From assembly GCA_044221725.1 (NCBI GenBank), contig JBGAON010000002.1:481455-545454 (forward strand): 64,000 bases of DNA, read 5' to 3'. The position numbers and the translations under genes are program-made. The notes beneath the pieces were generated by a model, which searched no databases, had not been told where the DNA came from, and worked only from the letters and a program-made list of their open reading frames with translations. This document shows positions 50,995 through 51,315 of this stretch, piece by piece (position 1 is the first letter of the stretch; every line of letters begins with the position of its first letter). The DNA is from Elusimicrobiota bacterium (GTDB lineage: Bacteria; Elusimicrobiota; Elusimicrobia; F11).

Positions 50995-51315
50995 ATGGCT
51001 GCAATTGATCCGGATTTTCAGACAAATAGAAAGGTAGTGGGGACATCGCCAGAGGGATATCAGATCTGGGGTCCGGTGGAACCACCAACCAAACTTGGTA
51101 TTCATGGGACATGGGTCGCCGTTGATTACGACCTTTGCGTGGCCGATGGCGCGTGCCTCGATGCATGCCCCGAAAACGTTTTTGAATGGCGCGACACGCC
51201 GGGTCACCCAGCGTCCGCGAAGAAAGCGGCTCCGGCCAAAGAAGAAGCGTGCATTTTCTGCATGGCGTGCGAAAGCGTTTGCCCGGTTCTCGCGATCAAG
51301 ATCACCCCGAAATAA
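50995..51315 (+). CDS. Dicluster ferredoxin with N-terminal extension (Sulfolobus-type 7Fe zinc-ferredoxin homolog)
   Basis: 106 aa. About 40-aa N-terminal extension ([12 protein letters not shown]...[14 protein letters not shown]), then Cx5Cx3CP and CxxCxxCxxxCP cluster motifs. By recall it resembles the archaeal Sulfolobus zinc ferredoxin, although two of its Zn-ligand His positions are not conserved. Confidence 0.7.

Follow-up and report, generated by a model that had tools for sequence, protein, structure and literature searches.

A ferredoxin of an archaeal fold family behind a bifurcating-type Etf in Elusimicrobiota: a candidate replacement for a lost EtfA ferredoxin domain

Why should a bacterial chromosome carry, directly behind the genes for an acyl-CoA dehydrogenase (ACAD) and both subunits of an electron transfer flavoprotein (Etf), a ferredoxin that resembles the zinc-containing ferredoxins of archaea? 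The question is raised by a stretch of 64,000 nucleotides from an Elusimicrobiota bacterium (contig JBGAON010000002.1 of assembly GCA_044221725.1, positions 481,455-545,454; hereafter 'the window'), in which the gene for a ferredoxin of 106 residues occupies positions 50995..51315 of the + strand. The answer favored here, with moderate confidence, is that the protein may serve the ACAD-EtfBA complex as its dedicated partner in one-electron transfer, replacing a ferredoxin domain that was once fused to EtfA; the case for this partnership is drawn wholly from comparative genomics.

The membership of the ferredoxin in an archaeal fold family is apparent over its entire length. In a phmmer search of the PDB the zinc ferredoxin of S. 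tokodaii (1XER) is the top match (E=4e-46) and that of A. ambivalens (2VKR) matches at E=1e-44; residues 4-105 of the query pair with residues 2-102 of both proteins across a single one-residue gap, and the N-terminal extension of approximately 40 residues is therefore homologous as well. The next PDB match, FwdF, covers the cluster core alone at 1.8e-16, 30 orders of magnitude below 1XER. Pfam finds only generic Fer4 domains (residues 41-103), and the top NCBIfam model, NF041165 (ZFX_Thplmales), scores 94 bits against a cut-off of 280, below its equivalog threshold. An AlphaFold2 model built on an alignment of 50 homologues (pLDDT 96.5) was compared by Foldseek with 1XER/2VKR, giving for the predicted structure TM scores of 0.96/0.99 and root-mean-square deviations of 0.5-0.6 A over 104 columns; the remaining PDB matches span just 64-70 core columns, so that 1XER and 2VKR are the only full-length ones. 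The cluster ligands follow the 7Fe pattern, with C48-x5-C54-x3-C58-P (D51 at the second-Cys position; 51136-51171) followed by C86-xx-C89-xx-C92-xxx-C96-P (51250-51285), and all seven cysteines are invariant across the 50-sequence alignment. The initial annotation of this DNA had recognized the extension and cluster spacing of the Sulfolobus/Thermoplasma zinc ferredoxins, and these comparisons bear it out: the best homologues are 1XER and 2VKR, with a homologous extension, rather than ordinary bacterial 2x[4Fe-4S] ferredoxins with an unrelated one. The gene is under strong purifying selection; compared with a collinear contig of a metagenome-assembled genome (MAG; L001, matching window positions 46658-51916 at 80% DNA identity), it differs at 49 nucleotides, of which 47 are third codon positions, yet encodes an identical amino acid sequence. 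An antisense open reading frame (ORF) at 50977-51393 (138 residues) was rejected as a shadow of this gene. The protein is accordingly named here as a predicted functional [3Fe-4S][4Fe-4S] member of the archaeal zinc-containing ferredoxin fold family.

The Etf encoded immediately upstream is, as judged from motifs and structural matches, of the bifurcating type. Its small subunit, EtfB (274 residues; 49068..49892, + strand), carries the motifs ADTWATS (residues 94-100; 49347-49367) and DGDTGH (residues 128-133; 49449-49466), and matches CarD (6FAH_B, 9e-64), the T. maritima protein (7KOE_A, 2e-58) and the C. difficile protein (5OL2_B, 6e-56) far ahead of the human one (1EFV_B, 5e-26). The large subunit, EtfA (343 residues; 49912..50943, + strand; RPSFGG at residues 152-157, 50365-50382), matches CarE (6FAH_A, 1e-78, beginning at CarE residue 67, past its ferredoxin domain), 7KOE_B (1e-71) and 4KPU_A (9e-68), with 1EFV_A at 2e-40. 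Across five bifurcating reference structures (CarDE, T. maritima FixAB, C. difficile EtfAB, A. fermentans EtfAB and LctBC) the E-values run from 9e-64 to 2.5e-50 for EtfB and from 1e-78 to 1.5e-61 for EtfA, as against 5e-26 or weaker and 1.7e-40 or weaker for the canonical references (human, Paracoccus and Methylophilus; scores 1e-20 to 1e-40). Published statistics give the corresponding 'zipper' motif as D(100%)-G(95%)-D(85%)-T(100%)-A/G(86/11%)-Q/H(93/7%) in 216 bifurcating ETFs and as D-D-D-S-N-Q in 449 canonical ones (PMC8958531). A glycine in EtfB, small enough to give the isoalloxazine of the beta flavin (beta-FAD) room, has been used in F. nucleatum to separate the two classes (PMC12630350), canonical ETFs having a bulky residue there or D-D-D-S-N-Q; by the alignment, the Gly of DGDTGH would be this diagnostic residue. 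The bifurcating signature for which the initial annotation had asked is thus present, and a canonical, AMP-binding EtfB was not found, because DGDTGH occurs together with matches of 1e-50 to 1e-78 to bifurcating ETFs. The ACAD (409 residues; 47784..49013, + strand; Pfam Acyl-CoA_dh_N/M/1) is Bcd-like, with its catalytic Glu in YEGT (residues 385-388; 48936-48947); its top PDB match is C. difficile Bcd (5OL2_C, 3e-104), followed by A. fermentans 4L1F (5e-99), and its best NCBIfam model, AcrC, reaches 386 bits against a cut-off of 640, so that no equivalog is assigned. Lying 54 nucleotides 5' of etfB, it completes the gene set of a Bcd-EtfAB system.

It is at the N-terminus of EtfA that the ferredoxin gene acquires its significance. 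In the window protein there is no N-terminal Fe-S domain, nor any Cys before the ETF domain, and the latter holds for each of the 54 EtfA cluster representatives whose identity to it reaches 70% or more ('short' EtfA). Among the listed representatives at 59-66% identity, nearly all have at the N-terminus a domain of approximately 80 residues with two CxxCxxCxxxC motifs, as in CarE ('long' EtfA); entries of 396-403 residues, which show one motif, are truncated gene calls, and a few listed ones at 64-67% identity (P0194, P0196 and P0256) have no such domain. The short proteins begin with a Met placed directly after the ferredoxin domain of the long orthologues, outside the CarE/LctC subtype. The order fabF-rnc-ACAD-etfB-etfA-fd(106 aa)-smc is found at 9 of 9 short-EtfA loci, down to 70% EtfA identity (the window, L001, L002, L166, L167, L168, L169 from Ca. 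Obscuribacterium magneticum, L173, and L175 from 'bacterium F11'), with fabG-acpP upstream and wecG downstream wherever the locus extends that far. Four long-EtfA loci complete the sample. At three of them (L170, L172 and L174), which have the same upstream order fabF-rnc-ACAD-etfB-etfA, no ferredoxin gene lies within approximately 5 kb of etfA, and two of these genomes hold a ferredoxin of the family elsewhere, next to nuo genes (L084) or sdh genes (L081). At the fourth (L171, 5001-7748) a copy with an intact zinc site lies 1.15 kb downstream of etfA, beyond a glycosyltransferase gene on the opposite strand, an arrangement that could be either an intermediate or a coincidence. The fabF-rnc-ACAD-etfB-etfA block as such is syntenic in Elusimicrobia to approximately 61% EtfA identity, although smc is the next gene after etfA, or after the ferredoxin gene, in just a part of those lineages; one genome (GCA_964441955.1) was placed in Elusimicrobia solely by this common fabF-rnc-ACAD-etfBA synteny. 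The coincidence of a ferredoxin gene behind etfA with loss of the EtfA ferredoxin domain favors what the initial annotation had suggested, that the ferredoxin might be a dedicated redox partner of the Etf. An opposite view, that the adjacency of etfA and the ferredoxin gene was incidental and limited to two close relatives, had arisen from ferredoxin-centered sampling and was overturned by EtfA-centered sampling; the former misled because its scans were pattern-limited and returned other paralogues.

The 'linked' ferredoxins also form a distinct subtype. All carry (A/S)P(E/D)GYQIWGP, LGIHGT and KKAAP, their identity to the query is 83-94%, and the PEGYQIW signature is confined to them, being present in 0 of at least 15 unlinked copies. 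Ca. Obscuribacterium magneticum holds both a copy with an intact zinc site (L004) and the Etf-linked one (L169), which are 71% identical; the Etf-linked gene is therefore an extra, specialized paralogue. Across the linked loci the ferredoxin (83-94% identity) is more conserved than EtfA (70-90%) or Smc (55-71%). EtfB, in turn, differs according to the short or long state of EtfA, through an insertion of 6-8 residues at 158-165 (in the window the Gly-rich, lineage-specific SNGIGKGG, 49539-49562, seen only in short-EtfA lineages) and altered segments at 86-91 and 241-249. With approximate numbering, the two altered segments appear to match the places where the fused domain of Ldh-EtfAB is modelled to touch EtfB (PMC9232219), and together with the insertion they could form a docking surface for a free ferredoxin.

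The arrangement of the genes in the window is that of a single unit. The order rnc-ACAD-etfB-etfA-fd is read with successive gaps of 9, 54, 19 and 51 nucleotides, and a terminator-like hairpin of approximately 16 pairs with a U-run (51346..51390, + strand) closes the co-directional unit ahead of smc, which starts at 51492; it folds at -33.4 kcal/mol, where shuffled versions average -17.95 (z -5.56). The consensus scan listed no terminator-like site in the 51-nucleotide spacer between etfA and the ferredoxin gene (50943-50995), and the sole strong terminator of the unit lies 3' of the ferredoxin gene; since the consensus scans for promoters and terminators did no better than on shuffled sequence, the assignment of the terminator relies on folding. 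Gene order, spacing and terminator all agree with the ferredoxin being the last gene of the ACAD/EtfB/EtfA unit, as initially annotated. An AGGAGG ribosome-binding site stands 10 nucleotides 5' of the ferredoxin ATG (50979..50984, + strand). A connection to fatty-acid synthesis through the neighboring fab genes was set aside because the unrelated rnc and smc genes have the same synteny.

The zinc site of the ferredoxin is degenerate, and here the comparison with the archaeal proteins becomes more complex. The ligands His16, His19, His34 and Asp76 are described as strictly conserved in zinc-containing members of the family (PMC2946596). When those of 1XER are mapped onto the query, H16 falls on P19 (HMMER) or S18 (MAFFT), H19 on Y22 and D76 on A79 (51229-51231), and H34 is kept as H37 (51103-51105), with the former HxxH segment now reading S18-P19-E20-G21-Y22 (51046-51060, + strand). 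Three of the four ligands are thus lost, which places the protein most naturally among the zinc-lacking members of the fold family; judged by its ligands, it is probably zinc-free. The initial annotation had the HxxH replaced and the third His (LGIHGT) kept, which holds, although its register of S-P-E-G gives way to P-E-G-Y, and it did not include the loss of Asp76. Among 201 sequences of the family, H-H-H-D occurs in 89, F/Y-I-W-F in 61 (all from Nitrososphaeraceae) and the query-like x-Y-H-A in approximately 25. Within Elusimicrobia the site is intact in L003, L004, L011, L024, L087-89 and L171; three further Elusimicrobia sequences (P0003, P0004 and P0011) have an insertion of 1-2 residues and have lost H19 and D76 while keeping H16; and forms lacking three ligands comprise the query type, a KKDEKFGYQIW type (L005/L084-86) and an NGAYDIW type (L081). 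Because sister Elusimicrobia copies retain the full H-H-H-D, the site decayed inside the bacterial lineage. Its loss is also seen in copies with no Etf linkage and is thus not specific to the Etf-linked ferredoxin; nor is zinc loss as such new, since zinc-lacking isoforms are known from Sulfolobales among the archaea (Acidianus ambivalens FdB and Sulfolobus metallicus; PMC2946596). The degenerate forms almost always have the third His and a Tyr where H19 stood, which suggests that a Tyr-His contact may stand in for the zinc; the metal content of the ferredoxin is in every respect a prediction from such residues.

From where, then, did a bacterium obtain such a protein? A review of 2010 described the family as confined to a few archaeal orders (PMC2946596). 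Of the best 80 of 244 confirmed matches in GTDB species-representative genomes, 7 loci are from Elusimicrobia, the sole bacteria among them, and the rest are from Nitrososphaerales or other Thermoproteota, in keeping with the initial remark that such a ferredoxin would be unusual in a bacterium. Further named matches come from Halobacteria, Thermoplasmata and Aigarchaeota/Caldarchaeales, and in these sampled searches every named relative outside Elusimicrobiota is archaeal, although the scans were limited by pattern or word, such that bacterial carriers beyond Elusimicrobia could have escaped them. A metagenome scan returned nearly exclusively soil Nitrososphaerales, with 4 informative bacterial-type loci, 0 of which are Etf-linked. 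The nearest named ferredoxins (82-84% identity) and EtfA proteins (72-90%) belong to Elusimicrobia/Elusimicrobiota MAGs. Bacterial and archaeal copies are up to 69-74% identical, matching the identity between Elusimicrobia paralogues; this value and the wide spread of the family among archaea favor transfer from archaea to bacteria, and the most likely history would be that an ancestor of the respiratory Elusimicrobiota acquired the family from archaea and that duplication within the phylum followed. Neighbor-joining (NJ) trees on 105 columns resolve little, with bootstrap values of 51-64% where it matters most and of 6% for the bacteria as one clade; how many transfers there were, and in which direction, is therefore put forward as inference. 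Recent horizontal transfer is unsupported, the ferredoxin gene having a GC content of 0.55 (0.56 at third codon positions) against 0.49-0.54 (0.51-0.60) for its neighbors. Co-transfer with a Sulfolobus-type 2-oxoacid:ferredoxin oxidoreductase (OFOR) was rejected, the OFOR alpha subunit at L011 being nearest to Magnetococcus OGOR (6N2N, 4e-70), with S. tokodaii OFOR at 1e-39.

The unlinked Elusimicrobia copies occupy several positions: after nuoLMN-polyprenyl synthase-tatAC and before rpsB-tsf (L005, L084-87 and L024), after sdhC-sdhA-x-sdhB (L081-83), divergent to a two-subunit OFOR (L011), and elsewhere (L003 and L004). A ferredoxin of the family thereby recurs at the tail of respiratory or energy clusters (L005 1818-6324, L084 1-6324, L081 2159-6327 and L011 2302-6315). 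The homologues of Nitrososphaeraceae, soil ammonia-oxidizing archaea (loci L012-L080 and L094-L165; for example L029 6001-6306, and L049 and L065 on one contig), form the C-terminus of much longer ORFs, often with two copies per genome; these are either of approximately 335-350 residues, starting MSALLKDRVW, or of approximately 200-230 residues, starting with a CxxC-containing, zinc-ribbon-like segment.

The explanation favored for the linked gene can be put as a sequence of events. The ancestral Elusimicrobia unit would have been ACAD-EtfB-EtfA(long); in one lineage the N-terminal ferredoxin domain of EtfA would have been deleted, and a duplicate of the resident archaeal-type ferredoxin inserted behind etfA and specialized as the partner of the beta-FAD. 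In trans, the ferredoxin would then fill the role of the N-terminal 2x[4Fe-4S] domain of EtfA in related Elusimicrobia, CarE and LctC, carrying a low-potential electron to or from the beta-FAD of EtfB. The proposed reaction, NADH + enoyl-CoA + oxidized ferredoxin <-> NAD+ + acyl-CoA + reduced ferredoxin, might run in either direction; partnership, reaction and direction are all predicted. Work on known systems offers precedents for both states: the fused EtfA ferredoxin domain relays electrons between an external ferredoxin and the beta-FAD, and its truncation in Ldh-EtfAB abolishes confurcation, while Bcd-EtfAB complexes that have no fused domain use free ferredoxin directly (PMC9232219). As to the host, microaerophilic respiration is predicted for Ca. 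Obscuribacterium, with complex I, cytochrome bd, NorBC and OFOR (bioRxiv 10.1101/2022.07.08.499144), and groundwater Elusimicrobia are reported to possess a complex I that lacks NuoEFG and presumably depends on ferredoxin (bioRxiv 10.1101/765248). The lineage is probably respiratory and microaerophilic, which fits an oxygen-tolerant 7Fe ferredoxin. A bolder version of the proposal, offered only tentatively, is that of a 'module swap', in which a lineage of microaerophilic respirers would have shed the 2x[4Fe-4S] relay domain from EtfA, its place being taken in trans by a duplicated 7Fe ferredoxin, free of zinc and archaeal in origin.

Several observations weigh against a dedicated partnership. 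The ferredoxin gene might stand next to etfA for the sake of shared regulation and nothing more, in a fab-rnc-ACAD-etf-smc block that is, as a whole, housekeeping DNA of conserved order. The sampled loci, 9 short and 4 long, are not phylogenetically independent, the short state having probably arisen once, and the Etf-linked clade has an NJ bootstrap of just 55%. The 3' end of etfA (50921-50949) contains a pair of promoter-like hexamers, although such matches are no commoner than in shuffled sequence. In the S. tokodaii homologue cluster I ([3Fe-4S]), which is selectively reduced by its oxidoreductase, lies at -280 mV (PMC2946596), which, if it held here, would be an unexpected value for a bifurcation acceptor because it is more positive than NADH. 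Finally, the family has other partners, since other Elusimicrobia copies adjoin nuo, sdh or OFOR genes. A rival reading is a general housekeeping ferredoxin, the main oxygen-tolerant electron carrier of the cell, passing electrons for example between OFOR and a NuoEFG-less complex I, that came to stand behind etfA by neutral rearrangement and has no particular tie to Etf. The copies after nuoLMN-polyprenyl synthase-tatAC (L005, L084 and L085), after sdhCAB (L081-83) and divergent to OFOR (L011) speak for such a role, as do the presumed ferredoxin dependence of the groundwater complex I, the service of the Sulfolobus homologue as an OFOR acceptor (PMC2946596) and the ribosome-binding site that the gene has to itself. 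This account is nevertheless unlikely, as it leaves unexplained the presence of the gene at 9/9 short-EtfA loci and its absence at 3/4 long-EtfA loci of the same synteny, the distinct subtype of the linked copies, and the second, zinc-site-intact copy in Obscuribacterium.

Alternatively, the ferredoxin might be a bound relay subunit on EtfAB, a stand-in encoded in trans for the lost domain, passing electrons between the beta-FAD and a separate carrier that diffuses freely, either a flavodoxin or another ferredoxin (the paralogue with the intact zinc site, for instance). The relay through the fused domain of CarCDE and Ldh-EtfAB to an external ferredoxin (PMC9232219) is a model for this, and the two paralogues in Obscuribacterium, the lineage-specific changes on the EtfB surface and the very high conservation of the ferredoxin sequence would all be in line with it; yet Bcd-EtfAB works directly with free ferredoxin, the protein retains the complete stand-alone fold of the soluble Sulfolobus ferredoxin, and no second paralogue of the family occurs inside the 64-kb window. 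A bound relay is judged about as improbable as the housekeeping role. Less probable still is an Etf that does not bifurcate in vivo, an ordinary beta-oxidation ACAD and ETF to which the ferredoxin would be unrelated or an adventitious acceptor. The predicted microaerophilic respiration of Ca. Obscuribacterium and the beta-oxidation predicted in these lineages point in that direction, and a Bcd-adjacent ETF proved canonical in F. nucleatum (PMC12630350). The EtfB of F. nucleatum, however, has Phe at the diagnostic Gly position, where the window reads D-G-D-T-G-H with a Gly that is near-invariant in bifurcating ETFs; the E-values favor bifurcating over canonical structures by 30-40 orders of magnitude; and no gene for an ETF:quinone oxidoreductase is adjacent. 

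The remainder of the window is an ordinary segment of bacterial chromosome, with genes for TamB, BamA and type IV pili, smc, wecG, rib genes, ligA, purH and a fatty-acid run (yceD-plsX-fabH-fabD-fabG-acpP-fabF-rnc), and its + strand carries 51 of the 54 long, non-overlapping ORFs. The listed rnc ORF overlaps the end of fabF by 50 nucleotides (47061-47110), and between the end of smc and a wecG-like ORF the overlap is 38 nucleotides (54940-54977); for rnc and the wecG-like ORF alike, the true start probably lies downstream of the TTG that is listed. The ACAD contains an insertion of 32 residues (residues 304-335, GMDKTFVQAIDNAEKSGGFVADEMKKLSRRRW; 48693-48788, + strand) not present in solved Bcd/ACAD structures; it is shared by most Elusimicrobia orthologues (407-409 residues), long-EtfA lineages included, and is not in that of L174 (387 residues).

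The component families and both Etf architectures were already known, and no paradigm is changed. In the literature searched, there was no report of a bacterial clade of this ferredoxin family, of stepwise decay of the zinc site within such a clade, or of a tie between recruitment of a ferredoxin gene and loss of the EtfA ferredoxin domain. The clade is the only bacterial one found, in sampled searches, with a fold described as restricted to a few archaeal orders, and its graded series of zinc sites, from H-H-H-D through loss of H19 and D76 to loss of three ligands, is well suited to asking what a structural zinc does and what replaces it. The pairing of domain loss with ferredoxin recruitment would assign a bifurcating-type Etf of an uncultured phylum its own physiological partner, and provides a testable pair: a short EtfA with a free 7Fe ferredoxin, and a long EtfA with its fused domain. 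For free-living Elusimicrobiota it points to a redox metabolism that draws on ferredoxin, in lineages for which respiration of low-tension oxygen is predicted. Were the module swap true, a bifurcating ACAD-EtfAB would work with an oxygen-tolerant, [3Fe-4S]-containing carrier, possibly feeding the NuoEFG-less complex I, and Etf-based bifurcation or confurcation would reach oxic niches with partner potentials markedly unlike those of clostridial ferredoxins.

Set beside the systems already known, the locus combines familiar parts. With the ferredoxins of 1XER and 2VKR (62-65% identity over the full length) the query shares the N-terminal extension of three strands and one helix, the central loop, and the motifs CxxDxxCxxxCP and CxxCxxCxxxCP; unlike them, it has a bacterial host, replacements of H16, H19 and D76, a one-residue insertion in the ligand loop, and a gene within an Etf operon, whereas the archaeal protein serves OFOR. 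The Acidianus ambivalens FdB and S. metallicus isoforms and the Nitrososphaeraceae copies belong to the same fold family and likewise dispense with the zinc site, but the pattern of substitution differs: the Nitrososphaeraceae, the group compared by sequence, exchange all four ligands for F/Y-I-W-F, whereas the clade of the query retains the third His and a near-invariant Tyr at H19. The Bcd-EtfAB systems of C. difficile and A. fermentans also join an ACAD and a bifurcating-motif EtfB to an EtfA with no fused ferredoxin domain. Those systems, however, operate in strict anaerobes with a small 2x[4Fe-4S] ferredoxin of clostridial type, as opposed to an operon-encoded 7Fe ferredoxin with an archaeal-type extension in what is probably a microaerophilic respirer, and the 32-residue insertion in the ACAD and the 6-8-residue insertion in EtfB are peculiar to the window side. 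The best structural relatives of the two Etf subunits, CarD and CarE, come from CarCDE (6FAH) of Acetobacterium woodii, which, like Ldh-EtfAB (7QH2) of the same organism, has an EtfA with an N-terminal ferredoxin domain, and most other listed Elusimicrobia EtfA orthologues retain the CarE-like domain with its two clusters; unlike these, the EtfA of the window has cleanly lost that domain, and the gene for an unrelated, stand-alone ferredoxin follows etfA.

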